Source of the DNA: a virus
Lineage: Duplodnaviria > Heunggongvirae > Uroviricota > Caudoviricetes > Ackermannviridae
Virus record (IMG/VR): IMGVR_UViG_2974516482_000001
Coordinates: 31,225 to 95,224 of that record
Direction: 5' to 3' (one strand)
DNA length: 64,000 nucleotides
Under the pieces are notes generated by a model, which was not told the origin of the DNA, did not search any database, and saw nothing but the letters and a program-made list of their open reading frames with translations. The translations under genes were made by a program, and so were the position numbers. Positions 1,116 to 26,963 of this stretch are shown here, piece after piece (the stretch's first letter is position 1; every line of letters starts with the position of its first letter).

Positions 1116-1784
1116 ATGATGAAACTGTTGCGTGAGATCACAGCGATAGGGAAGGATCTTCAAATCGGTGAGGCCACAACCTCAACTGGTGGGAAGGCCA
1201 TGTTCATCGAAGGTCCGTTTGTGATGTGTAACCAAGTCAACCGTAACCGGCGTAACTATGATCTGCAGAAAGTGGGTATTCCTGCTGTCGAAGCATACGA
1301 CAAAGAGTATATCCAAGATCGTCGCGCAATCGGTGAAGTCACACATCCTGACTATCCTTTCCCTAATCTGGTGGAAGCTGCGCTCAAAACCGAATCCCTT
1401 CGCTGGGAAGGCACTAATGCCATCGGTCGGGCGCGAATTTTAAATACACCAAAAGGCCAAATCATACGTGCATTGGCCGAAGCAGACTTCAATCTGGCCG
1501 TGTCTACACGTGGTCTGGGTGAGACCAAGTCAGTAAACGGTTATGACGACGTTCAACCTGGCTTTATGCTCACCGCTGTTGATGCAGTCGACCGTCCTTC
1601 TGGACAAGTTTGTTATGTTAAGGCTGTGAGTGAATCTGTTGAATGGCAGCTTGATGAGGCTTCGGGTATTTGGATGCCTCGTGATGTTAAAGGGAAAGTT
1701 GTAGACCAGTTGGTGAAAACCAATATCCAGGTTGAAGACGATTTCCTGCGCCGCCTTGATGCAGCATTGAATCATCTGGGCTGA
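1116..1784 (+). CDS. prohead core scaffold/protease (T4 gp21 family)
   Basis: 222 aa. Position and size match gp21. Sits between the gp68-like and scaffold genes. Confidence 0.75.
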   Translation: MMKLLREITAIGKDLQIGEATTSTGGKAMFIEGPFVMCNQVNRNRRNYDLQKVGIPAVEAYDKEYIQDRRAIGEVTHPDYPFPNLVEAALKTESLRWEGTNAIGRARILNTPKGQIIRALAEADFNLAVSTRGLGETKSVNGYDDVQPGFMLTAVDAVDRPSGQVCYVKAVSESVEWQLDEASGIWMPRDVKGKVVDQLVKTNIQVEDDFLRRLDAALNHLG

Positions 1785-1830
1785 ATTTCAGCTCACTAAA
1801 TACTGAAAAATCGTTCAGAAGGAAACTATC

Positions 1831-2670
1831 ATGAAACCTGAATTGCAAAAACTGTTTGAAGGCGTTAATGGCCTCAGCACCGATTTCTTGGACAAAGTAT
1901 CTGGTCTGCTGGAATCTAAAGTTGAAGCCGCCCGTCTGCAAGCTATTCAAGAAACTGAAGCGGCTGGTAACGTTGAGCGCCTGACTCTGGTAGAAGCCCA
2001 CCAGAAAGAAGTCGCAGACCTTAAAGAAAATTTCACTCTTCAGTTGGCGGAAAAAGTTGATTCGTTCCTCAACGCGGTTGTTGAAGAATGGGCTAACAAA
2101 AATGCTCCGGCTATTGACGCTCAGATCAAAACCGAAGCTGCTGAACGCTTCCTCACTGGTTTCTCTAATGTTCTGAAAGAAGCAGGTGTTAGTTTCGCCA
2201 CTGACCCAGACGGTCAGATTGCAGCTCTCACCAACCGCCTGGCTGAAGCAGAGCAACGCGCCAGCATTGCCAATACTGAATTGGCTCAGCTCAAAGAAAG
2301 TGAAACCAAACGCCAGCGCAATGATGTCATTGATCGTATTTGTGAAGGTATGGTTGACACCAAGAAAGACACTGTTGTCAACCTGCTGGAAGGTATTGAA
2401 TTCCAGACCGAGTCTGAATTTGAATCCCGTGTGCGCACCTTCCGTAACCTGGTAGAAGGCAAAGATGACTTCTCTGATAAAGTCGGCAAAGACAATGAAA
2501 AAGGCAAGCCGGATGGCGACAAGTCTGAAAAAGACATCAAAGAAGGTAAAAAACCGAAGAAAGAAGGTGAAGCCGACGATGATGACGATGACGATGATGA
2601 CAAAGACGAAGTTGGCAAAGAAGTCAACGAAGCCGTCCGTCGCCAGATCAGTGCTTTGCTGAACGGCTAA
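1831..2670 (+). CDS. prohead core scaffolding protein (gp22-like)
   Basis: Coiled-coil, Glu/Lys-rich 279-aa product with a poly-Asp tract. Immediately upstream of the major capsid gene. SD GAAGGA. Confidence 0.7.
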   Translation: MKPELQKLFEGVNGLSTDFLDKVSGLLESKVEAARLQAIQETEAAGNVERLTLVEAHQKEVADLKENFTLQLAEKVDSFLNAVVEEWANKNAPAIDAQIKTEAAERFLTGFSNVLKEAGVSFATDPDGQIAALTNRLAEAEQRASIANTELAQLKESETKRQRNDVIDRICEGMVDTKKDTVVNLLEGIEFQTESEFESRVRTFRNLVEGKDDFSDKVGKDNEKGKPDGDKSEKDIKEGKKPKKEGEADDDDDDDDDKDEVGKEVNEAVRRQISALLNG

Positions 2671-2761
2671 TTTTAGCAGCCACAGCCCTCGAAAGGGGGC
2701 TTGATTTTGAACTACTAAGTAATTTCAACTTAACTGAATATCAATGTAAGGAACGAGCATC

Positions 2762-4084
2762 ATGACTAAGAAACTTGTAACCGAAGAAATGCGCAAACAG
2801 TGGCTGCCAGTTCTCCAAAAAGAATCTGAAGCTATTCAACCTCTGTCTGCCGAAAACGTAACCATCCGTCTGATGCAGAACCAGGCTGAATGGAACGCAA
2901 AAAACCTGGGCGAATCTGACGCACCTGGTTCTGTGAACAGCACTGTCGGTAAATGGCAGCCAGTTCTGATCGACATGGCAAAACGTCTGGCGCCGATCAA
3001 CATCGCGATGGACTTCTTCGGTGTTCAGCCGCTGTCTGGTCCTGACGGTCAGATCTTTGCACTGCGCGCTCGCCAGGGTGTTGGTGACAGTTCCAACACC
3101 GCACAGTCTCGTAAAGAACTGTTCATGCAGGAAGCCGATTCCGGCTATTCCGGTGATGGTACTGTACAGGCTGGCGACCCGTCAGGCTTTAGTCAGGCTG
3201 AGATCGAAGGTTCCGGCTCTGTCGTGACCACTATCGGTAAAGGTATGCCGTCAACCGACGCGGAACTGCTGGGTACTACCACCAATCCGTGGGCGCGTGT
3301 TGGTATCACCGTTCAGAAAGCGACCGTTACTGCCAAGTCTCGCGGCCTGTACGCTGATTACAGCCATGAACTGCGTCAGGACATGATGGCAATTCACGGC
3401 GAAGACGTGGATAATATCCTGTCTGACGTGATGGTAACTGAAATTCAGGCGGAAATGAACCGTGAATTCATCCGCACCATGAACTTCAGTGCCGTTCGCT
3501 TCAAAAAATTCGGCGCCAACGGTGTTGTTGATATCACGCAGGACATCTCCGGTCGTTGGGCGCTGGAAAAATGGAAATTCCTGACTTTCATGCTGGAAGT
3601 CGAAGCGAATGGTATCGGCGTTGACACCCGTCGTGGTAAAGGCAACCGTGTTCTGTGTTCTCCGAACGTGGCGTCTGCTCTGGCAATGTCCGGCATGCTG
3701 GACTATGCTCCGGTTCTGCAGGAAAACACCAAACTGGCTGTTGACCCGACTGGTCAGACCTTCGCGGGTGTTCTGTCCAACGGCATGCGCGTCTATGTTG
3801 ACCCATATGCTGTAGCAGAATATATCACCCTGGCGTATAAAGGCGCGACCGCGCTGGATGCTGGTATCTTCTTCGCGCCGTATGTGCCGCTGGAAATGTA
3901 CCGCACCCAGGGTGAAACCACCTTCGCTCCGCGTATGGCGTTCAAAACCCGTTACGGCATCTGTGCTAACCCGTTCGCACAGATTCCGGCTAACCAAGAC
4001 CCGCAGGTTTACGTGACTGCTGACGGTATTGCCCAGGATAGTAATCCATATTTCCGTAAAGGCTTAATCAAAAGTTTGTTTTAA
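2762..4084 (+). CDS. major capsid protein (T4 gp23 family)
   Basis: Motifs FGVQPLSGPDGQIFALRA and C-terminal NPYFRKGLIK align with T4 gp23 (FDICGVQPMNSPTGQVFALRA ... NAYFRRVYVKGI). Strong codon bias. Terminator follows. Confidence 0.9.
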   Translation: MTKKLVTEEMRKQWLPVLQKESEAIQPLSAENVTIRLMQNQAEWNAKNLGESDAPGSVNSTVGKWQPVLIDMAKRLAPINIAMDFFGVQPLSGPDGQIFALRARQGVGDSSNTAQSRKELFMQEADSGYSGDGTVQAGDPSGFSQAEIEGSGSVVTTIGKGMPSTDAELLGTTTNPWARVGITVQKATVTAKSRGLYADYSHELRQDMMAIHGEDVDNILSDVMVTEIQAEMNREFIRTMNFSAVRFKKFGANGVVDITQDISGRWALEKWKFLTFMLEVEANGIGVDTRRGKGNRVLCSPNVASALAMSGMLDYAPVLQENTKLAVDPTGQTFAGVLSNGMRVYVDPYAVAEYITLAYKGATALDAGIFFAPYVPLEMYRTQGETTFAPRMAFKTRYGICANPFAQIPANQDPQVYVTADGIAQDSNPYFRKGLIKSLF

Positions 4085-4165: not shown

Positions 4166-4813
4166 ATGAACCAACCATACGTTTACAAAATAGAATCAAA
4201 AGATGGACACATCTATTATGGATGTCGTCACGCAAAGAACTGTCACCCCAAAGAACTTTGGGTAAAATATTTCACGTCCTCGAAAGTCGTCCAATCCCTT
4301 GTATCACAACATGGACCAGATTACTTCACCCATGAAGTGATAATGCTATGTCGGGACGGAGAGGAAGCCCTCCAAGTTGAAGCGCAATTGATCGAATCCG
4401 TCCACACCAATCCTCTTTGTTTAAATCGTTTCCATGTTAAGAAAGATGGTTCCCTCGTTTATTTTGGGAGGACTGGGCCACTCAGCGAGGAAGCAAAGGT
4501 GCATTTGTCTAATGTAAACAGAGGGAAGAATAAACCAATTGGATTTTCGGAAACATCACGGCAAGCCCAAATCAAATATCAAGCAAGCGTGAGGATATGG
4601 AATCGACCTAGAGCCAAACCATTACAACACGTTTGGGCTATGGCTGACCAATTCTATCAATTATGGAAGAATGAAGGTTGGGGGCATGAACGTTTTTGTA
4701 ATCGGATGAACAATGGCAAAAACGTTCGCACATGCCACAACATGTACAAAATGTTCAAATACGAAAATTGGGTTCCTATGGAAGACCCTGAATGGGTAAA
4801 TGATTTCATGTAG
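4166..4813 (+). CDS. GIY-YIG homing endonuclease (Seg-like)
   Basis: N-terminal PYVYKIESKDGHIYYG...R GIY-YIG motif. Own promoter-like TTATAAT upstream. Paralog of the ORF at 35970. Confidence 0.75.
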   Translation: MNQPYVYKIESKDGHIYYGCRHAKNCHPKELWVKYFTSSKVVQSLVSQHGPDYFTHEVIMLCRDGEEALQVEAQLIESVHTNPLCLNRFHVKKDGSLVYFGRTGPLSEEAKVHLSNVNRGKNKPIGFSETSRQAQIKYQASVRIWNRPRAKPLQHVWAMADQFYQLWKNEGWGHERFCNRMNNGKNVRTCHNMYKMFKYENWVPMEDPEWVNDFM

Positions 4814-17812: not shown

Positions 17813-19831
17813 ATGGCAGAATTCAAACCCTTCGCAACGGCAGTTAATAACAACGTGCTGGCGATGTCCGCAACTGGTCTGTTCATGACCAATATCGATA
17901 AAGATGCTCTTTGGGATCTGTATCTGGCGTCCTTCCCTGAAGGCACTAACCCGCTGTACCGCGAACGTACTGAACACGATTGCACCTGCTGTAAACAATT
18001 CATCCGTAACATCGGCGGTGTTGTCACCATCGATTCAGAGCTGAACGTAATTTCTATCTGGGACAACATTGATCTGGGTAATGAATATGATGTTGTTGCG
18101 GCGGCGCTGTCAGCGTATGTCAAACAGCACGCAATCGTCGACGTGTACTTCAACGACACTAAGAAAGTTGGTGTTGAGTCGAACCACGAAATGAAAGACG
18201 GCAACGTTCGCACCTACAACCACTTCCACACCGAACTGCTGGGCAGCTATGTGCTGCGGGCGGATGACATCGCTTCTAAGAAGGGTGAAATCCGCCAGGC
18301 GATTGAAGTGTTTGAGCGCGGTCTGCGTGAACTGTCTCTGGAATCAGCCGAAATCGTTCTGGAACTGATCGATCAGAATTCTCTGTATCGCGGTGAAGAG
18401 CACAAAGCGGTAATGCAGGCGTTCGTGGTGAACAAGACTCTGTACGAACAAACTGCAGAAGAGAAACGCGCTGTGTGGGCTTGGCGCACTGGCTACCGCG
18501 CAAACGGTCATACTCCTCATGGCATTCGTAATACCGTGATTGGCTCTCTTCTGGTAGACCTCAACGAAGGTCGCGATCTGGAAACAGCCGTGAAGTCCTT
18601 CGAATCCAAAGTCGCTCCGACGAACTACAAGCGCCCGACCGCGCTGGTCACGAAGTCTATGATCGAAAATGCACAGAAAGAAGTTGAAGCGCTGGGTCTG
18701 ACTGAATCCCTGGGTCGCCGTTATGCCGTGTATGACGACCTGACCATCAACAACGTTCTGTTCGCCGACCTGGCAGCACAGAAGAAGATGGACCCGTTTG
18801 CTCAGCTGGCGTCTGAAGTGAAGACTCCGACCAAGTCCCTGGACAAGGTTGAAGAGATCACCATCGACGACTTCCTGACCAACGTGTTGCCAAAGGCGCA
18901 TTCCCTGGAAGTGCTGGTTGAGAACTCTCACACTGGCAACCTGATGTCTCTGATTGCTCCAGCTACGGCAGGTGCTCCTAACCTGTTCAAGTGGAACAAT
19001 GGCTTCAGCTGGTCGTACAATGGCGAAGTAGCCGACTCCATCAAAGAGCGCGTGAAGACCGCAGGCGGCAACGTAGACGGGTTCCTCCGTGTGTCTTTGG
19101 CATGGCATAACAACGACGACCTGGATCTGAGCCTGAACGATCCTCTTCACAACCACGTGTATTTCAACAACCGTCGTTCGGCAACTGGTGCAACCCTGGA
19201 CATCGACATGAACGGCATGGACGGTATTGACCCAAATCGCCGTCCGGTGGAGAACATCTTCTTCAGCGATGAACGCAAGCTGCGTGACGGGAACTATGAG
19301 TTCTATGTCACCAACTACAGCAAGCGCGAAACCTGCGATGTGGGCTTCGAAATCGAAGTTGAATACAAAGGCCAGACCAAGCGCTTCTCGCATCCTGGTC
19401 TGGGTAACAAAGATCGCACGTTGGCTGTTGTGGTTCAGGTACGCGCTGGTCAGGTGGTCGACATCAGTTCTACCCTGAAAGACGATGCTCGCTCTCAGGA
19501 AATCTGGGGCATCAAGACCTCGGTCTTCCAGAAGGTACAGCTGGTTCTGAACTCACCAAACCATTGGGATGGCGAGCAGACAGGCAACAAGCATGTATTC
19601 TTCATCCTGGAAGGTTGTGCCAACCCGGTCGGCACCCGTGGCTTCTACAACGAATATTTGAAGCCGGAACTGGATAAACACCGCAAGGTTTTTGAAATGT
19701 TAGGAGGTAAGATTAAAGTACAGCCAAGCACTGACCAGCTGTCCGGTCTGGGCTTCTCGACGACGCAACGCAACCACGTGTTCGTCAAAGTGTCCGGCGC
19801 GTTTAACCGTACTGTAAAAGTCATTTTCTAA
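17813..19831 (+). CDS. large hypothetical protein (672 aa)
   Basis: GGAAGA SD. Strong codon bias. No recognisable catalytic motif. Confidence 0.55.
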   Translation: MAEFKPFATAVNNNVLAMSATGLFMTNIDKDALWDLYLASFPEGTNPLYRERTEHDCTCCKQFIRNIGGVVTIDSELNVISIWDNIDLGNEYDVVAAALSAYVKQHAIVDVYFNDTKKVGVESNHEMKDGNVRTYNHFHTELLGSYVLRADDIASKKGEIRQAIEVFERGLRELSLESAEIVLELIDQNSLYRGEEHKAVMQAFVVNKTLYEQTAEEKRAVWAWRTGYRANGHTPHGIRNTVIGSLLVDLNEGRDLETAVKSFESKVAPTNYKRPTALVTKSMIENAQKEVEALGLTESLGRRYAVYDDLTINNVLFADLAAQKKMDPFAQLASEVKTPTKSLDKVEEITIDDFLTNVLPKAHSLEVLVENSHTGNLMSLIAPATAGAPNLFKWNNGFSWSYNGEVADSIKERVKTAGGNVDGFLRVSLAWHNNDDLDLSLNDPLHNHVYFNNRRSATGATLDIDMNGMDGIDPNRRPVENIFFSDERKLRDGNYEFYVTNYSKRETCDVGFEIEVEYKGQTKRFSHPGLGNKDRTLAVVVQVRAGQVVDISSTLKDDARSQEIWGIKTSVFQKVQLVLNSPNHWDGEQTGNKHVFFILEGCANPVGTRGFYNEYLKPELDKHRKVFEMLGGKIKVQPSTDQLSGLGFSTTQRNHVFVKVSGAFNRTVKVIF

Positions 19832-20676: not shown

Positions 20677-21549
20677 ATGACAACTCGTACTGGCATCAAA
20701 CTCACTCCTGAAGTCCTGAAGTCACATATCGCTGAGGTGATTTACGAAGACCGCGAAGTCGGCGGTCACCGGGCTATCACTTGTCATTTCAAGATGGATA
20801 ACGGCTTCGTCGTTCACGGCACCAAGCCCAGCACATCCATAGACCCGGCCAACTTCGATGAAGCCCTGGGCAAAGAGATTTCCTACAATAACACCTTCGA
20901 CCAGCTGTGGCAGCTGGAGGCATATCGTGCGCTTGTTGAACAAGAACTGCTCTCCAAGGCGGTGGAAACAGCTGAAATCAGGATCGACCAATACATCGTA
21001 AGCAGAAGCGCTCTCAGTCCGGCGTATCACCTCGGACACAACGTGCTGATTCAAGACGTGATGTTCAAAGCGGAAAACGGTCAATCGTATATGGCGTCCT
21101 TCGTCTGTGGTCCGGAAGACATGGATCTCGTTATTGACGGACACAATGACAAATCTCGTAAGGCTGTGAGCGACTTCCTTCGCGCCAACTCCAAACTCGA
21201 CCTCATCTACTCTCCGTTGGTGCAGCGTATTGCTAAGACCTGCCATGAAGCCAACCGCGCCTATTGTGAGTCTGTCGGTGATGACTCTCAAATGCCTTGG
21301 GAACAAGCCCCGGCCTGGCAGCGTGAGAGTGCCTGTAAAGGCGTTATTTTCCATCTCACTGGTGAACGTAAGCCTAGCGAGTCGCATGAAAGCTGGCTGG
21401 CGCAGAAGGAGTCTGAGGGATGGGTGTACGGTGATGTCAAAGACTTCGATAAGAAGACTCACCCATGCATGCGCCCTTACAACGAACTCCCTGTTGAGCA
21501 GCGCACCAAGGACTACATCTTCAAAGGCATCGTAGACTCCTTCAAGTGA
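20677..21549 (+). CDS. hypothetical protein with C-terminal RyR-like domain
   Basis: C-terminal segment (CHEANRAYCE...WEQAPAWQRESACKG...YNELPVEQRTKDY) resembles the ryanodine-receptor (RyR) repeat seen in phage proteins. Confidence 0.45.
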   Translation: MTTRTGIKLTPEVLKSHIAEVIYEDREVGGHRAITCHFKMDNGFVVHGTKPSTSIDPANFDEALGKEISYNNTFDQLWQLEAYRALVEQELLSKAVETAEIRIDQYIVSRSALSPAYHLGHNVLIQDVMFKAENGQSYMASFVCGPEDMDLVIDGHNDKSRKAVSDFLRANSKLDLIYSPLVQRIAKTCHEANRAYCESVGDDSQMPWEQAPAWQRESACKGVIFHLTGERKPSESHESWLAQKESEGWVYGDVKDFDKKTHPCMRPYNELPVEQRTKDYIFKGIVDSFK

Positions 21550-21660
21550 TCTGACTTATCCTAAGCCTTTCAATAACAATAACGCCCAGTATATTTGCCG
21601 GGCGTTTCATTTAACAACCACAGTATAATACGGCTGTACAATACACCATGAGGCTACATT

Positions 21661-22515
21661 ATGTTTCGTTTGAAATTGAACGACCAAGATGTGTTCTATA
21701 AACACTTCACCTTTCCAGGCGGTGAAGAACACGTCAAGATCCAAAAGGCGGGTATCCCTGTCGCCAAAGTCCAGAAGGTGAAGATTGACGCCCACATTAA
21801 ATCATCAGCCGACTTTATTGAGCTGGCGTTGTTAGTCAATGCTGTGCGTGGGCTGAGTAATGTGGATCGCATGACCACCTTCCATGCATGCATCCCTTAC
21901 TTCCCGTATGCTCGCCAGGATCGTCATTGCGACTTTGGTGAACCTCTGTCTGTGAAGTGGGCTGCTGAGTTTATCAATAGCATGAACTTTGACCGTGTGG
22001 CCATCTATGATCCACACAGCCATGTTGTCACCTCTCTGATTAACAACGCCCATGTCGTACAACAGGATTACATTGTTCGCCAGTATCTGGGTTGGTTCAT
22101 CCGTGGAAACAATGCTGTGCTGGTAGCCCCCGACGGCGGCGCGGCCAAGAAGACCGAAACCCTCAGCCTGTCTATGGGTGGTGTTCCTATCATTTACGGA
22201 CACAAGAACCGTGACACCAAGACAGGCGAGATCATTGGGGTGAGTATTACAAACCCTGAATTGATCAAAGACCGCTATCTGGTTGTGGTCGATGACATCT
22301 GCGACGGCGGGCGCACGTTTGTTGAGCTGGGCAAAGAGCTTCAGAAGCACAAGCCTAAGCACATGACGCTCTTCGTTACCCATGGCATCTTCAGCAAAGG
22401 TCTCTCTGTGTTCGACGGGATTTACGATGCTGTGTATGCCGACACTGTCTGGTGGGAGAACATCACCGCCGACGGTCTTCCATTCAAAACTGAAAATACA
22501 GGACGTGTAAAATGA
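21661..22515 (+). CDS. ribose-phosphate pyrophosphokinase-like enzyme (PRS family; candidate ADP-ribose pyrophosphokinase of an NAD+ reconstitution pathway)
   Basis: PRTase signature VVVDDICDGGRTF. VLVAPDGGAAKK. 284 aa. ATGA overlap with the downstream NAMPT-like gene. Confidence 0.8.
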   Translation: MFRLKLNDQDVFYKHFTFPGGEEHVKIQKAGIPVAKVQKVKIDAHIKSSADFIELALLVNAVRGLSNVDRMTTFHACIPYFPYARQDRHCDFGEPLSVKWAAEFINSMNFDRVAIYDPHSHVVTSLINNAHVVQQDYIVRQYLGWFIRGNNAVLVAPDGGAAKKTETLSLSMGGVPIIYGHKNRDTKTGEIIGVSITNPELIKDRYLVVVDDICDGGRTFVELGKELQKHKPKHMTLFVTHGIFSKGLSVFDGIYDAVYADTVWWENITADGLPFKTENTGRVK

Positions 22516-24176
22516 GCATGCGCCACTTAGATCCAATCCATGCAATCGACTTCTACAAATCAGGGCATATCTATCAATTCCCTGAAGGCAGCGAGCTGGT
22601 GTTCTCCAACGGAACTCCGCGCTCCAACAAACTGTTCAACTCTCACCTGCCGAAGAACGGCGTGGTGGTCTGGGGCATCCAGGGCTTCATGACCTGGTTC
22701 CATGAACTGTTTGATGAAGCGTTCTTCCAGCGCCCGAAAGCCAAGGTGCTGAAGAAATATGCCCGTCGCATGAACAAAGTGCTTGGTCCAGGCCGCGTCG
22801 GCACAGAGCATATCGAAGCCCTGCACGACCTCGGCTACCTGCCTATCGAAGTCCGTGCTCTGCCCGAAGGCACCATGTGTCCGTATGGCGTTCCGGTGTA
22901 TGTGATGTTCAACACCTTGCCGGAGTTCTACTGGCTGACCAACTATCTGGAGACTGTGTTCAGTTCCGAGATCTGGAAACCGATGACGAACGCCACCATC
23001 GCCCTGCATTATAAGGCGCTGATGGTGAAAGCCGCTATCGCTACGGGTGTGTCACCAGACCATTGGTTCATCGATTACCAAGGCCACGACTTCTCCTTCC
23101 GTGGTATGAGCGGTTGGCATGATGCCGCGTCTTCCGGTTCTGGCCATCTGGTATTCTTCAAAGGCACCGACACCAACCCTGCCCTGGACTTCGTAGAAGA
23201 GTATTATGGCGTAGACATCGACGAAGACTATGTTGTTGCCGGCTCTGTTGCGGCTACCGAACACGCCGTGATGTGCATGGGCACGAAGGATGGTGAATTC
23301 GAAACCTTCCGCCGCCTGGTGCAGGACGTGTATCCTGATGGCATCGTCAGCATCGTGTCCGACGCATGGGATTACTGGCAGGTCATCGACGACTATCTGC
23401 CTCGCCTGAAAGACATTATCATGGCGCGTAACGGTAAAGTCGTGATCCGCCCTGACTCGGGCGACCCTGTACACATCGTTGGCGGCTACCGCATTGAATC
23501 ATTCCGCAATCGCGGGACGCTTCAGTTAAGCAGCGTGTCCAGCAGCACCGAAGTCATCCACATCGAAGAGACGAACACATATCACCTGATCACAGGCGAA
23601 GGCACGATCAACTCTCTGATGGCAGATGACCGCAATATCATCAGTCGTTCAGAAGCGGTCGGCTCTATCCAGCGCCTGTGGGAGATCTTTGGCGGAACCC
23701 AGACTGAAACTGGTCACTTCCTGTTGGACGAACACATCGGTCTGATCTACGGCGATTCCATCACCCTGGCACGTGAAGACCAGATCTTTAGCCGTCTGGC
23801 TGGCCGGAACTTCGCTTCCATCAACGTGGTGTTCGGTATCGGTTCCTACACCTACCAGATGAACACCCGTGACAGTACTGGCACGGCAGTGAAAGCGACG
23901 GCTGGTAAGGTGAACGGTGAATTCCGCGAAATCTTCAAAGAGCCGAAGACCGACAAAGGCGGGACTAAAAAGTCTGCGCGTGGTTTCCTTAAAGTCATTA
24001 AAGACTTTCAGGGTAAACTAGTGTTGGTTGACGGTATCACCTTTGATCAGGTGCAAGACGCCGACAACCAGCACCAGCTGGTGTACCGCGATGGCAAGTT
24101 CTTCAACACCCAAACGCTGGAAGATGCGCGTGTCCGCGCCGCTCCTCTGGTGGTAGAATTGGCCTCACAAATCTGA
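22512..24176 (+). CDS. nicotinamide phosphoribosyltransferase-like enzyme (NAMPT/NadV family; candidate nicotinamide ADPR transferase)
   Basis: 554 aa NAMPT-family product (GTDTNPALDFVEEYYG, AATEHAVMCMG, PDSGDP motifs). Translationally coupled to the PRS-like gene. Confidence 0.8.
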   Translation: MSMRHLDPIHAIDFYKSGHIYQFPEGSELVFSNGTPRSNKLFNSHLPKNGVVVWGIQGFMTWFHELFDEAFFQRPKAKVLKKYARRMNKVLGPGRVGTEHIEALHDLGYLPIEVRALPEGTMCPYGVPVYVMFNTLPEFYWLTNYLETVFSSEIWKPMTNATIALHYKALMVKAAIATGVSPDHWFIDYQGHDFSFRGMSGWHDAASSGSGHLVFFKGTDTNPALDFVEEYYGVDIDEDYVVAGSVAATEHAVMCMGTKDGEFETFRRLVQDVYPDGIVSIVSDAWDYWQVIDDYLPRLKDIIMARNGKVVIRPDSGDPVHIVGGYRIESFRNRGTLQLSSVSSSTEVIHIEETNTYHLITGEGTINSLMADDRNIISRSEAVGSIQRLWEIFGGTQTETGHFLLDEHIGLIYGDSITLAREDQIFSRLAGRNFASINVVFGIGSYTYQMNTRDSTGTAVKATAGKVNGEFREIFKEPKTDKGGTKKSARGFLKVIKDFQGKLVLVDGITFDQVQDADNQHQLVYRDGKFFNTQTLEDARVRAAPLVVELASQI

Positions 24177-24215
24177 TAACTGAAGGGGAGGGAACTCCCC
24201 GTTTGAGGTCGAGAA

Positions 24216-24389
24216 ATGTCCAAACCATTCAAAAATGCGGGTGTCGACAACCTCGACCGCCGCTTTACTCCATCGGAAACGCTGATGAGTCAGATTGAGA
24301 CTAATCGCGAATTCATAGAACACATGCTGGCGAAGCCGGAAGGTGAAGCCGTCCATACCACTAAAGAAGGTAATAACGATGATTGAATC
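24216..24389 (+). CDS. small hypothetical protein (57 aa)
   Basis: Follows the hairpin at 24185-24203. Its stop overlaps the VWA gene start (ATGATTGA). Confidence 0.35.
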
Positions 24390-26595
24390 ATTAACATTTA
24401 AGAATGCGGTTGCGACCGTCGCGCCGTCTAACCATGTAATCGTTGTGGATATCTCCGGTTCCATGTATCGTTCACTTCCAGAAGTCCGTAAGCATCTGAA
24501 GGAGAACCTGCCTTCCCTGGTGAAACCGGAAGATACTGTGAGCATCCTTTACTTTTCATCTCGCGGTGATTTCGGAACGGTATTTGCCGGACGTCAGATT
24601 AACAGTGCAACTGATCTCAGTGAGATCAATAATCTAATTGACCGTTTCCTGAAGCCTTCTGGTTGTACTGGTTTTGTTGAGCCGCTGAAATTGGCTGCGG
24701 AAACTGCCATTAGTCTGAATAAACCTGGTTATGTTAACAACCTGGCATTCATGACCGACGGATATGACAACTGCTGGCGTTCTAATGAAATCCTGGATGC
24801 CGCTGAAGTACTGCCCAAAGCGTTTGATAACATTACCTTCATCGAATACGGTTGGTATTGTAATCGCGAACTGCTGGCGCTAATGGCAGAACGTTCTGGT
24901 GCGACCCACGTATTCGCCGAAGGCCAGAATGAATATCAGACCGAATTGGAAAATGTACTGAAATCATCTACGCCGAAAGTGGTTGTTGATGTTCCCCTGG
25001 TTTACACTCATGCCATCTACGTTGAAAACGGCGTGGCAACTGTTTTAGCCGTACAACCTGATGAAGAACACCCGATTGGCCACGTCAGCATCCCTGAAAG
25101 CGTTTCTCAGCTGTGGGTTGTAAACCCCAACATGATCGACCAGCTGGATAATCTGGCAGACACCCAAGCGGCATACGTGCTGGCATTCTATGGCGTGTAC
25201 ACCATGGACGCCGATCTGGTCTGGGCCGCGCTGAAGAAGACGGGTGACGTCCGCTTCATCAAACAGTACAGCAACTGTTTCACCAAGCAGGATTACTCCA
25301 ACATCAAAGTTGATCTGACTCAGGCTATCGTAGACGAATCTCTGCGAGGAGTTGATGGCATCGATTATAATATGGTTCCGGCTGAAGACGCCACCACCAT
25401 TGTTGATGTTCTGACGTATCTGGCTGAAGCAGATGTCTCTATCGTCACCAAGCATCCGCTATTCTCTTACAAGAGCATTGGGCGCGGTACTGTACAGAAA
25501 GTTGATGACACCGAAGACAAGTTGGCCGAAGAGATTGCGAATGCGACTTCTAAAGAAGAGCGTAAAGCCCTGGCGCTCAAACTGGCCGAGCACGAAGATT
25601 GGACCCCCGAATTCAATCCAGCAGATGATAAAGGGATTGTCCCGATCAGCAATTTGGTCTATAATTCAGAACGCCCTAACATCAGTGTGCAGACAGTTCA
25701 ACACGGAACGGTTGTTGTGCCTGAGTTTGTACAGAAGAAATATGAACTTCCTGAAGAGCTGGGAACCTGGCGTTATCGCAATTACACCATTGTCAAGGAT
25801 GGTATCATCAACCTGAAAACAATGCCTATCACTGCGGATTCTCCGATTGTTCGGGCTAAGGTGGCACAGGATTTGACTGCCATGGGTGTTCATGTGTTTG
25901 GTGGACCGGAAGTCTTCATTGTAAATCTGGAAAGTGTCCCAATGGTTAACCGCGCTATGACAAAGAATATCAGTGCTGCTGAATTCTTTGCAGACAATGT
26001 GCACCGTGAAGCATTGAAGGCGAAACAAAAAGTTCTGAAATTCTATCGTGATGAGCTGGTTGGTAAAGGCAATGCTGCTGGTTTGGCTTCAAAATATGGC
26101 AAAGAAGCGGCTGATTTCCTGTCAGCAAACGGCATTCGCGACTATGGATTTTCACCGAAGACTTCTTCTGTAGAATCAACCGATGTCTATATGAGTCGTG
26201 AATTGAATGTGAAAATCAAAGGCGCATCTTCACTGCCGAGCATCGCGTCTGTTATCAAAAAACAGACGGACGGTAAAAAACTGAATGTCGCTGATCAGTT
26301 GATTGCTAATGCTCTGGCCGAATACAACGCTTTCGTTAAATCGCCAATGATCACCAGCGTACCTGAAGAGACTCAGAAAAAGCTGATTGAAAGCTGGATC
26401 GGAGACGCAGCAAAAGCGGCCATTAACGAAGTCCGCGCCCTGAACAAAACGCTGTCCAAGGTAGTTTATGGGATTGTTGCAGGCCATGGTTGGTTTACCG
26501 ACCTGGATTTGGAAGAATCCACTATGGATGTGGAAGTTGATGGGGTGAAATACACCGTCACTGCCGAACTGGCCGAAAAAGAAGTCAAAATCTAA
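24379..26595 (+). CDS. von Willebrand factor A (VWA) domain protein, 739 aa
   Basis: N-terminal MIDAS-type motif VVVDISGSM and subsequent VWA-like strands. Long C-terminal region of unknown function. Confidence 0.7.
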   Translation: MIESLTFKNAVATVAPSNHVIVVDISGSMYRSLPEVRKHLKENLPSLVKPEDTVSILYFSSRGDFGTVFAGRQINSATDLSEINNLIDRFLKPSGCTGFVEPLKLAAETAISLNKPGYVNNLAFMTDGYDNCWRSNEILDAAEVLPKAFDNITFIEYGWYCNRELLALMAERSGATHVFAEGQNEYQTELENVLKSSTPKVVVDVPLVYTHAIYVENGVATVLAVQPDEEHPIGHVSIPESVSQLWVVNPNMIDQLDNLADTQAAYVLAFYGVYTMDADLVWAALKKTGDVRFIKQYSNCFTKQDYSNIKVDLTQAIVDESLRGVDGIDYNMVPAEDATTIVDVLTYLAEADVSIVTKHPLFSYKSIGRGTVQKVDDTEDKLAEEIANATSKEERKALALKLAEHEDWTPEFNPADDKGIVPISNLVYNSERPNISVQTVQHGTVVVPEFVQKKYELPEELGTWRYRNYTIVKDGIINLKTMPITADSPIVRAKVAQDLTAMGVHVFGGPEVFIVNLESVPMVNRAMTKNISAAEFFADNVHREALKAKQKVLKFYRDELVGKGNAAGLASKYGKEAADFLSANGIRDYGFSPKTSSVESTDVYMSRELNVKIKGASSLPSIASVIKKQTDGKKLNVADQLIANALAEYNAFVKSPMITSVPEETQKKLIESWIGDAAKAAINEVRALNKTLSKVVYGIVAGHGWFTDLDLEESTMDVEVDGVKYTVTAELAEKEVKI

Positions 26596-26628: not shown

Positions 26629-26639
26629 AGGAAATGAAT

Positions 26640-26963
26640 ATGAGCAACAAACCGACTTATGTTGAGGTGATGCGCCACCTGGCTCAGTACTCCACAGAGA
26701 ATCTGAATATGGATCTGTGGCGCGACGATGACAAGCGCAAACTACTGGATGACGTGGCGGCTCAAAACGAAGACGCTCTGGACAAGCTGGCTGGCCTCCG
26801 CACCAAGAAAGACCTTGGCGGCGACGAACTGGATGCCATCGAAATTGTGATGGACTTGGAAGAAGAGTTTCAGGTTGAAATCGAAGACGGCTGGCTGGGC
26901 AGTAAAGGCGATGACCCGACCATGGGTGAACTCGCCGAACTCGTGGTTGCCCTGTGTAAATAA
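26640..26963 (+). CDS. acyl carrier protein-like protein with Ser-to-Glu substitution at the phosphopantetheine site
   Basis: DLGGDELDAIEIVMDLEEEFQVEIED aligns with E. coli AcpP [26 protein letters not shown]. The DSL serine is E here. About 50-aa N-terminal extension. Confidence 0.65.
   Translation: MSNKPTYVEVMRHLAQYSTENLNMDLWRDDDKRKLLDDVAAQNEDALDKLAGLRTKKDLGGDELDAIEIVMDLEEEFQVEIEDGWLGSKGDDPTMGELAELVVALCK

Follow-up and report, generated by a model that had tools for sequence, protein, structure and literature searches.

We wanted to determine the role of two overlapping genes, gp052 and gp053, which lie at positions 21661-24176 of a 64,000-nucleotide stretch of viral DNA (hereafter the window). 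The window is an exact match to record positions 31225-95224 of Salmonella phage maane (Kuttervirus, Ackermannviridae; MT074480 / NC_049508), whose whole genome comprises 159,128 bp. In GenBank gp052 is labelled 'ribose-phosphate pyrophosphokinase' and gp053 'nicotinamide phosphoribosyl transferase'. Such a pair could serve classical salvage, with gp052 as a true phosphoribosyl pyrophosphate (PRPP) synthetase, gp053 as a true NadV, and nicotinamide mononucleotide (NMN) converted to NAD+ by host NadR or PncC/NadD. It could also be a cassette of NAD+ reconstitution pathway 1 (NARP1), in which gp052 would be a Prs-like ADP-ribose pyrophosphokinase (Adps) and gp053 a Nampt-like nicotinamide ADP-ribose transferase (Namat). 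Our analysis indicates that the pair is very probably a NARP1 cassette. For maane itself we computed the family placement, the conservation of catalytic and selectivity residues, the absence of alternative pathways and the structure of the cassette. The chemistry and the anti-defence phenotype we infer from experiments performed on homologs from Bas63, SPbetaL1, FADO, DyoEdafos and ICP1.

NARP1 was described by Osterman et al. 2024 (doi 10.1101/2024.02.11.579819). In this pathway Adps pyrophosphorylates ADP-ribose (ADPR) and Namat joins the resulting ADPR-pyrophosphate (ADPR-PP) to nicotinamide, which yields NAD+; the defences countered are SIR2-HerA, type I Thoeris, DSR1, DSR2 and SEFIR. Supplementary Table 1 of that paper ('Adps homologs') includes MT074480_00052; the sequence given there is identical, and the entry for 'Namat within 10 genes' is Yes. 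In Table S2, MT074480_00053 appears as 'Adps-associated' (doi 10.1101/2024.02.11.579819). Maane therefore belongs to the 859 phage genomes counted there as NARP1-encoding. The assignment of gp052-gp053 to NARP1 is already known and not new, because both genes were listed in the supplementary tables of the discovery paper. The listing is bioinformatic, and the experiments reported with it used Bas63, SPbetaL1 and FADO (doi 10.1101/2024.02.11.579819). Later NARP1 experiments were performed with DyoEdafos, ICP1 and a Paenibacillus (P. foliorum) homolog. Conversion of ADPR and ATP to ADPR-PP, and of ADPR-PP and nicotinamide to NAD+, was demonstrated for the SPbetaL1, DyoEdafos, ICP1 and P. foliorum homologs, and rescue of the phage from NAD+-depleting defence was demonstrated for Bas63, FADO and an SBSphiJ knock-in. 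The maane pair adds nothing conceptually new to NARP1 biology; it corrects a stale annotation, from 'Prs' and 'NAMPT' to Adps and Namat.

The adps gene (gp052) spans positions 21661-22515 of the plus strand, starts with ATG and encodes 284 amino acids. The namat gene (gp053) spans positions 22512-24176 of the same strand, also starts with ATG and encodes 554 amino acids. The two genes overlap by the four nucleotides ATGA (context aaATGAgc), as the ATG of gp053 (22512-22514) shares bases with the TGA of gp052 (22513-22515). The initial annotation had reported a PRS-like gene overlapping by ATGA a 554-residue gene of the NAMPT family, and both the coordinates of the open reading frames (ORFs) and the sequence agree with it. 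The gp052 protein matched both Prs domains of Pfam (PF00156 and PF13793) and carries the motif VVVDDICDGGRTF at residues 208-220, while gp053 matched PF04095 (NAPRTase/Nampt, E = 9.7e-32). In PHROG the matches were 'ribose-phosphate pyrophosphokinase' for gp052 (1e-90) and 'nicotinamide phosphoribosyl transferase' for gp053 (1e-192). These family matches are far beyond chance. Classical salvage is favoured by the agreement of the GenBank and PHROG annotations and by the matches of both proteins to generic Pfam families.

In BLASTP comparisons gp052 gave 127, 99, 83 and 70 bits to the Adps of Bas63, SPbetaL1, DyoEdafos and FADO, respectively, and 69 bits to E. coli Prs. Since pairwise BLAST was indecisive, we used curated NCBIfam cut-offs and a purpose-built Adps profile instead. 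The protein scored below the cut-off in all 11 NCBIfam Prs models (105.1 vs 113 for TIGR01251; 52-94 vs 296-536 for the equivalogs), while E. coli Prs scored 423-532 on the Prs models. Most validated Adps, like gp052, score below the Prs cut-offs: on TIGR01251 the control proteins from SPbetaL1 (106) and DyoEdafos (81.7) were below and the one from Bas63 (138.5) was above. Further, we built a profile hidden Markov model from 17 Namat-linked Adps, all of them from outside Ackermannviridae. On this profile gp052 obtained 276.9 bits, more than every leave-one-out member (171-268), and E. coli Prs obtained 137.4 bits.

The residues of gp052 point in the same direction. All but one of the Adps in the profile set have a common catalytic-hairpin signature, K-x-R-[DN]-x-x-T-G-x-I. 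In gp052 this region reads KNRDTKTGEI (K182 in HKNRDTKTGEI), whereas E. coli Prs has KRRPRANVSQV. K182 aligns with K162 of SPbetaL1 Adps and K185 of ICP1 Adps, both of which are essential. The structures of ICP1 Adps (PMC13586617) define the ADPR/ATP-site residues F18, R87, H121, D161, D212, D213 and D216. They are matched in gp052 by F18, R85, H119, D158, D211, D212 and D215, in an alignment that is direct over residues 1-206 only (adps is truncated in the ICP1 isolate used), with D212-F221 placed by motif. ICP1 F92 corresponds to C90 of gp052, and it is likewise not kept in Bas63 or SPbetaL1. We took the site residues from the published ICP1 list, and a PDB sequence search for an Adps structure returned only canonical Prs entries. 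With class I PRPP synthetases (E. coli Prs, human PRPS1) gp052 shares PF13793 and PF00156, the lysine of the catalytic loop and the DD motif of the ribose-binding loop. It differs from them in its low identity (27%), in its scores below all curated Prs cut-offs, in its length (284 vs 315 amino acids), in the motif DPHS instead of DLHA, and in the absence of the C-terminal PRPS regulatory helices, which was described for Adps (PMC13586617). Judged by profiles and conserved residues, gp052 belongs to the Adps clade and not to canonical Prs. SPbetaL1 Adps gave no product from the Prs substrate, which also speaks against a PRPP synthetase in classical salvage.

We then compared gp053 with validated Namats and with NadV. 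BLASTP gave 43.0% identity and 419 bits to Namat of SPbetaL1, 43.4% and 409 bits to that of Bas63, and 41.9% and 378 bits to that of DyoEdafos, compared with 28.8% and 154 bits to NadV of Vibrio phage phi-pp2, which is of the KVP40 type. The same division was visible in tblastn against 50,697 phage records, where the matches were bimodal: NARP1-type sequences (Staphylococcus K-like phages, Felix O1-like phages, mycobacteriophages and others) were 37-47% identical, and those of KVP40-like and other T4-like phages 30% or less. The best sequence matches in the PDB were 9w5w/9w5x (452 bits), the sequence of which is identical residue for residue to SPbetaL1 Namat; human NAMPT gave 172 bits. A MAFFT alignment paired D13, Y15, F189, R192, D215, A242, R306 and D308 of SPbetaL1 Namat with D13, Y15, F194, R197, D220, A248, R313 and D315 of gp053 and placed the catalytic histidine at H251. 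Every residue named for the NAM/NMN site of Namat (PMC12774641) is kept in gp053.

The NCBIfam model NF006629 accepts gp053 (470 bits vs a cut-off of 405). This fits classical salvage, though validated Namat is accepted equally, as is NadV. Because the model does not separate the two, we discriminated by the clamp motif and by identity to validated proteins. The motif GSX-phi-X-phi-X-phi-TRD is specific for Namat and absent from Nampt (PMC12774641). In gp053 the clamp region (residues 444-454) reads GSYTYQMNTRD, in keeping with Namat in both length and pattern; its position 3 is Y446. The corresponding sequences are GSFTYQYNTRD in SPbetaL1, GSYTYQYMTRD in Bas63 and GSFTYQHNTRD in DyoEdafos, and KVP40-type NadV has GGGLLQQLDRD. 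The clamp of gp053 can be described as Namat-type overall and not fully canonical. From these comparisons we place gp053 in the Adps-associated (Namat) clade, distant from the KVP40-type NadV that classical salvage would require.

Several observations weigh against the assignment to NARP1. Pairwise BLAST alone fails to separate gp052 from E. coli Prs (69 bits vs 70-127 for validated Adps). Position 7 of the SCH in gp053 is Met450, a non-aromatic residue; it is Tyr in SPbetaL1 and Bas63 and His in the enzyme of DyoEdafos, which is active. The SCL of gp053 is K40-L41-F42, where Bas63 has K42-W43. Both deviations affect positions of the published selectivity clamp that stack on adenine. Further, gp053 has an insertion of approximately 55 residues (approximately 326-381) directly after the DSGDPVHIVGG strand. 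At this site Namat of Bas63 has approximately 100 extra residues, while those of SPbetaL1 and DyoEdafos have none. Finally, Namat enzymes retain some activity from PRPP to NMN in vitro, so some production of NMN is possible; this ability of the homologs also fits classical salvage.

Classical salvage would depend on conversion of NMN to NAD+, and therefore we searched the genome for the enzymes involved. The search covered 1,832 six-frame ORFs (at least 40 amino acids) of the whole 159-kb maane genome and used phmmer (--max) and tblastn. The queries were E. coli NadD, E. coli NadR, a KVP40-type NadR-like protein, a KVP40-type NatV (recovered through the published primer) and a small profile of NMN adenylyltransferase (NMNAT). 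No homolog of NadD, NadR or NatV was found below E = 0.06, and neither a Nudix box nor a GxFxPxHxGH motif was present in these ORFs. The same search recovered the positive controls Adps, Namat and the RyR gene located upstream of the pair. The complete annotation of maane (209 features) contains no NMNAT, NadR, PnuC, Nudix or Macro gene. Further, a Pfam scan of four genes upstream and three downstream detected no Macro domain; only DUF3268, gp49_66 and RyR, VWA and ACP (acyl carrier protein) domains were found.

These results were compared with the other known pathways. NARP2 consists of Nampt and Nmnat, NARP3 of a PnuC-like transporter and a NadR-like bifunctional enzyme (PMC13464706), and in NARP1-AP a Macro-domain ADPR-1''-phosphate phosphatase (Adpp) lies within two genes of NARP1 (doi 10.64898/2026.01.28.702374). 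NARP2 was rejected for maane as no NatV-type NMNAT was found genome-wide. With NARP2 of Vibrio phage KVP40 (NadV and NatV, an NMNAT/Nudix protein) the maane pair shares a Nampt-fold enzyme that uses nicotinamide and the countering of NAD+ depletion. It differs in the lack of NatV/NMNAT, in the identity of gp053 to KVP40-type NadV (29%), in the clamp sequence given above, and in the adjacent Prs-like gene, which NARP2 does not have. In a published survey 94% of the phages with KVP40-type Nampt also encoded Nmnat; the lack of one in maane argues against classical salvage. NARP3 was rejected since there was neither a NadR-like ORF nor a PnuC or NadR annotation, and NARP1-AP since the neighbour genes have no Macro domain. 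As Adpp is missing, maane is predicted to stay sensitive to aRES and to be unable to overcome it. Among the ICP1 records, MW794186.1 and MW794143.1 gave matches to a Namat of the NARP1 type (42% identity) and to a protein resembling NadR (36% to E. coli NadR). ICP1 may possess a NadR-type (NARP3-like) route in addition to NARP1, the matches lying in the records of two separate isolates.

The initial annotation had noted no NMN adenylyltransferase in the window; this is correct for the window and also for the entire genome of 159,128 bp. Both computational checks that it had proposed gave results in line with NARP1: by profile comparison gp052 fell below the NCBIfam Prs cut-offs and scored high on the Adps profile while gp053 grouped with validated Namats, and no NMNAT, Nudix or NadR gene was present in the rest of the genome. 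Its preference for Adps and Namat over Prs and NadV is borne out by the profiles, the clamp motif, the missing NMNAT and the published listing.

If gp052 and gp053 act like their homologs, the pathway would operate as follows. A host defence (SIR2-HerA, type I Thoeris, DSR1/2 or SEFIR) would cleave NAD+ to ADP-ribose and nicotinamide. Adps would move the beta,gamma-pyrophosphate of ATP onto the terminal ribose of ADPR, and Namat would exchange the pyrophosphate of ADPR-PP for nicotinamide, giving NAD+ directly; NMN would not be formed on the way, and NMNAT would not be needed. The two genes would be coupled translationally through the ATGA overlap and transcribed from their own promoter-like element, with hairpins on both sides. 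Maane shares with NARP1 of Bas63, SPbetaL1, FADO, DyoEdafos and ICP1 the order adps-namat, the tight coupling and the lack of NMNAT. The Namat proteins are 42-43% and the Adps proteins 27-39% identical. The catalytic lysine, the ADPR-site residues and the catalytic core of Namat are conserved, and the SCH clamp motif is kept in its overall pattern. The differences are Met at SCH position 7 (not Tyr or His), K-L-F in the SCL (not R or K-W) and the insertion of approximately 55 residues.

We also analyzed the boundaries of the cassette. A leader at positions 21621-21660 of the plus strand, ahead of adps, contains a -10-like TATAAT (21624-21629) and a Shine-Dalgarno sequence GAGG (21650-21653). 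We infer a promoter function of the TATAAT element from its conservation along with the cassette; a sigma-70 promoter scan of the region was not significant (16 sites vs 11.2 +/- 3.4 expected). A GC-rich hairpin, AACGCCC...GGGCGTT, lies at positions 21581-21606 (no strand assigned) between the RyR gene and the cassette. It is a terminator-like match with a predicted fold of -14.1 kcal/mol and is probably the terminator of the upstream RyR-domain gene; in phage Marshall the hairpin found at the corresponding site carries the annotation of a terminator. On the other side, 9 nucleotides past the namat stop, a second hairpin, GGGGAG-GGAA-CTCCCC, occupies positions 24185-24200 of the plus strand (predicted fold -13.3 kcal/mol). 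It presumably functions as a terminator, with a weak T-tract.

Comparison with related phages indicated that this segment is variable. Other Kutterviruses, among them phage kage, obtained in the same isolation campaign, and Marshall, have the genes in the same order as maane (gp048, gp049, gp050, the RyR gene, the terminator, the small gene, the vWA gene and the ACP gene), and no adps-namat. Homology between maane and kage ends at 21595 and restarts at 24364, so that a maane segment of 2,768 bp stands in place of 255 bp in kage (2237-2491 of the compared locus), which consist of intergenic and small-gene sequence. The small gene downstream of the cassette, gp054 (24216-24386), is a different allele with 45% protein identity to its kage/Marshall counterpart. 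In Klebsiella phage phi1_146021 the cassette is shifted upstream by two genes, and the order is gp049, adps, namat, gp050, gp051-like. There, blastn homology to maane covered positions 21621-24175 (from CAGTATAAT... to the namat stop) with 87% identity. The Adps and Namat of this phage share 93% and 91% identity with those of maane, compared with only 43-76% for the proteins on either side. In Erwinia phage phiEa2809 the RyR and vWA genes are present and NARP1 is missing. The relatives with and without the cassette and its different slot in phi1_146021 show that the promoter-like element, adps and namat form a self-contained cassette of 2.55 kb, which is acquired, lost or relocated in a single variable region of Ackermannviridae genomes. 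Such a pattern of gain, loss and relocation is the usual behaviour of counter-defence genes. In phi1_146021 the cassette is flanked on both sides by near-identical stem-loops, AACCCCGCC(C/A)TGTGCGGGGTTT (locus 1876-1976 and 4475-4566), which could be recombination substrates for moving it. The gp051 homolog of the same phage is annotated as 'anti-CRISPR protein' and has lost the RyR ligand motif.

The gene directly upstream, gp051, could extend the pathway to three genes. It spans positions 20677-21549 of the plus strand, is annotated as hypothetical and encodes 290 amino acids, with Phage_gp49_66 (PF13876) in the N-terminal and RyR/R12 (PF02026) in the C-terminal part. The latter domain belongs to the RyDEP family, which binds or cleaves Thoeris signals; other phage homologs are sponges (doi 10.64898/2026.05.28.727677). 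According to this preprint, RyDEP of DyoEdafos is encoded within the NARP1 operon and supplies the pathway, and adjacency to NARP1 is mentioned, in the part of the text available to us, for DyoEdafos only. A coupling of gp051 to gp052 and gp053 is favoured by this precedent, by the PF02026 match (39.8 bits vs a cut-off of 27.4) and by the phmmer match to DyoEdafos RyDEP (E = 3.9e-11). Two further observations favour it: gp051 retains counterparts of the catalytic dyad and the ligand residues of RyDEP (H237, W240, H262 and D279 for H75, W78, H100 and D117), and it lies 111 nucleotides upstream of adps on the same strand. Other evidence speaks against it. Over all 290 residues gp051 is 86.6% identical to homolog H6 of the preprint (UniProt A0A0C5PQF8, Salmonella phage), and none of the homologs H1-H8 cleaved cyclic ADP-ribose (cADPR), with only the C-terminal domain cloned for H6 (doi 10.64898/2026.05.28.727677). 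As all eight non-cleaving homologs keep the same four residues as RyDEP, sequence cannot tell a hydrolase from a sponge. The hairpin and the separate promoter-like element lie between gp051 and adps, and the RyR gene is present in Kutterviruses and phiEa2809 that have no NARP1.

To assess linkage we used a five-sequence alignment, which retrieved 80 IMG/VR loci; a nine-sequence alignment was too diverse to use. None of the 80 other RyR loci had Adps or Namat within 10 kb, and the RyR genes of the annotated phages TG1, PX29 and Moby were not near NARP1. Conversely, 19 Dickeya records matched adps-namat, and this genus was absent among the RyR matches listed (the smallest listed genus had 9 records), so NARP1 seems to occur in Dickeya relatives in which no RyR gene is detectable. 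We therefore rejected a general association of RyR and NARP1, given the 80 unlinked loci, the three annotated phages and the independent occurrence of both within the family. Taken together, a three-gene pathway is unlikely. In its most far-reaching form, which we likewise consider improbable, insertion of the cassette behind the RyR gene in the maane subgroup would have created a working three-part unit independently of DyoEdafos, with gp051 capturing or cleaving the cADPR of Thoeris and ADPR being recycled to NAD+. If this were true, M450, L41 and the 55-residue insertion might reflect a tuned substrate preference. More probably gp051 is an anti-Thoeris protein in its own right, beside which the cassette inserted, and a functional link to NARP1 is possible. 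The core NARP1 of maane stands beside an extra ADPR-related gene, as it does in NARP1-AP (Adps, Adpp and Namat) and in RyDEP-NARP1 of DyoEdafos. In maane this gene encodes a RyR domain and no Macro domain. It lies outside the cassette, behind a hairpin and in the conserved backbone, whereas in DyoEdafos RyDEP is located between adps and namat.

The two genes might also work as an auxiliary metabolic module that raises NAD+ for replication regardless of defence. The location of the cassette among genes of replication and nucleotide metabolism would suit such a role, and NARP2 raises NAD+ even without a defence system. For NARP1, however, free ADPR is required, which is supplied by NAD+ cleavage, and in Bas63 ADPR-PP was seen only in cells with an NAD+-cleaving defence. 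In addition, presence and absence among near-identical phages are typical of accessory counter-defence genes. We regard a general metabolic role as very unlikely. Classical salvage, against which the profile scores, the clamp and the lack of NMNAT already argued, is hardly credible; the homologous operon of Bas63 also functioned without host pncC and nadR.

With NARP1 as the preferred assignment, we examined its distribution. Among Salmonella Kutterviruses 24 records have the cassette, compared with 68 that have the RyR gene. We predict that maane, together with roughly one third of the Salmonella Kutterviruses, would resist SIR2-, TIR- and SEFIR-type NAD+-depleting defences, and that the sister phages without the cassette, kage and Marshall, would not. 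These natural relatives with and without the cassette offer a ready comparison for NARP1 in Salmonella, and presence or absence of NARP1 bears on the choice of Ackermannviridae phages for biocontrol or therapy.

Altered versions of the pair were observed in two other phages. In Shigella phage Ag3 (FJ373894_00125, Osterman Table S1) a single protein contains residues 1-222 of Adps fused to Namat from approximately residue 226, which results from an internal deletion or else from an artefact of assembly. The fusion is the basis of PHROG 12872 ('nicotinamide phosphoribosyl transferase', 547 positions), which therefore matches both maane genes; this accounts for the NAMPT label that both genes carry in the GenBank record MT074480. 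In ICP1 isolate 2019_Dha_H (locus 1519-3967) the adps ORF ends after approximately 206 residues and the namat ORF has no N-terminus, being open from approximately residue 35. NARP1 in this isolate seems to have been inactivated by a deletion across the gene junction, in the same region as in Ag3.

Some database records matching the locus carry doubtful host names. OR844942.1, 'Enterococcus phage Efm 3-10' (111 kb), shares 99.8-100% identity with maane across NARP1 and the RyR gene and is almost certainly of Kuttervirus origin, through mislabelling or contamination. Matches in the same search to three 'Ralstonia' records may be similar cases. Finally, the cassette lies within a conserved block of uncharacterised genes. 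This block includes a gene at 17813-19831 for a 672-residue protein with no Pfam match (phrog_1735), one at 24379-26595 for a 738-residue vWA-domain protein, and one at 26634-26963 for an acyl carrier protein homolog, which stands beside the vWA gene in this lytic phage.

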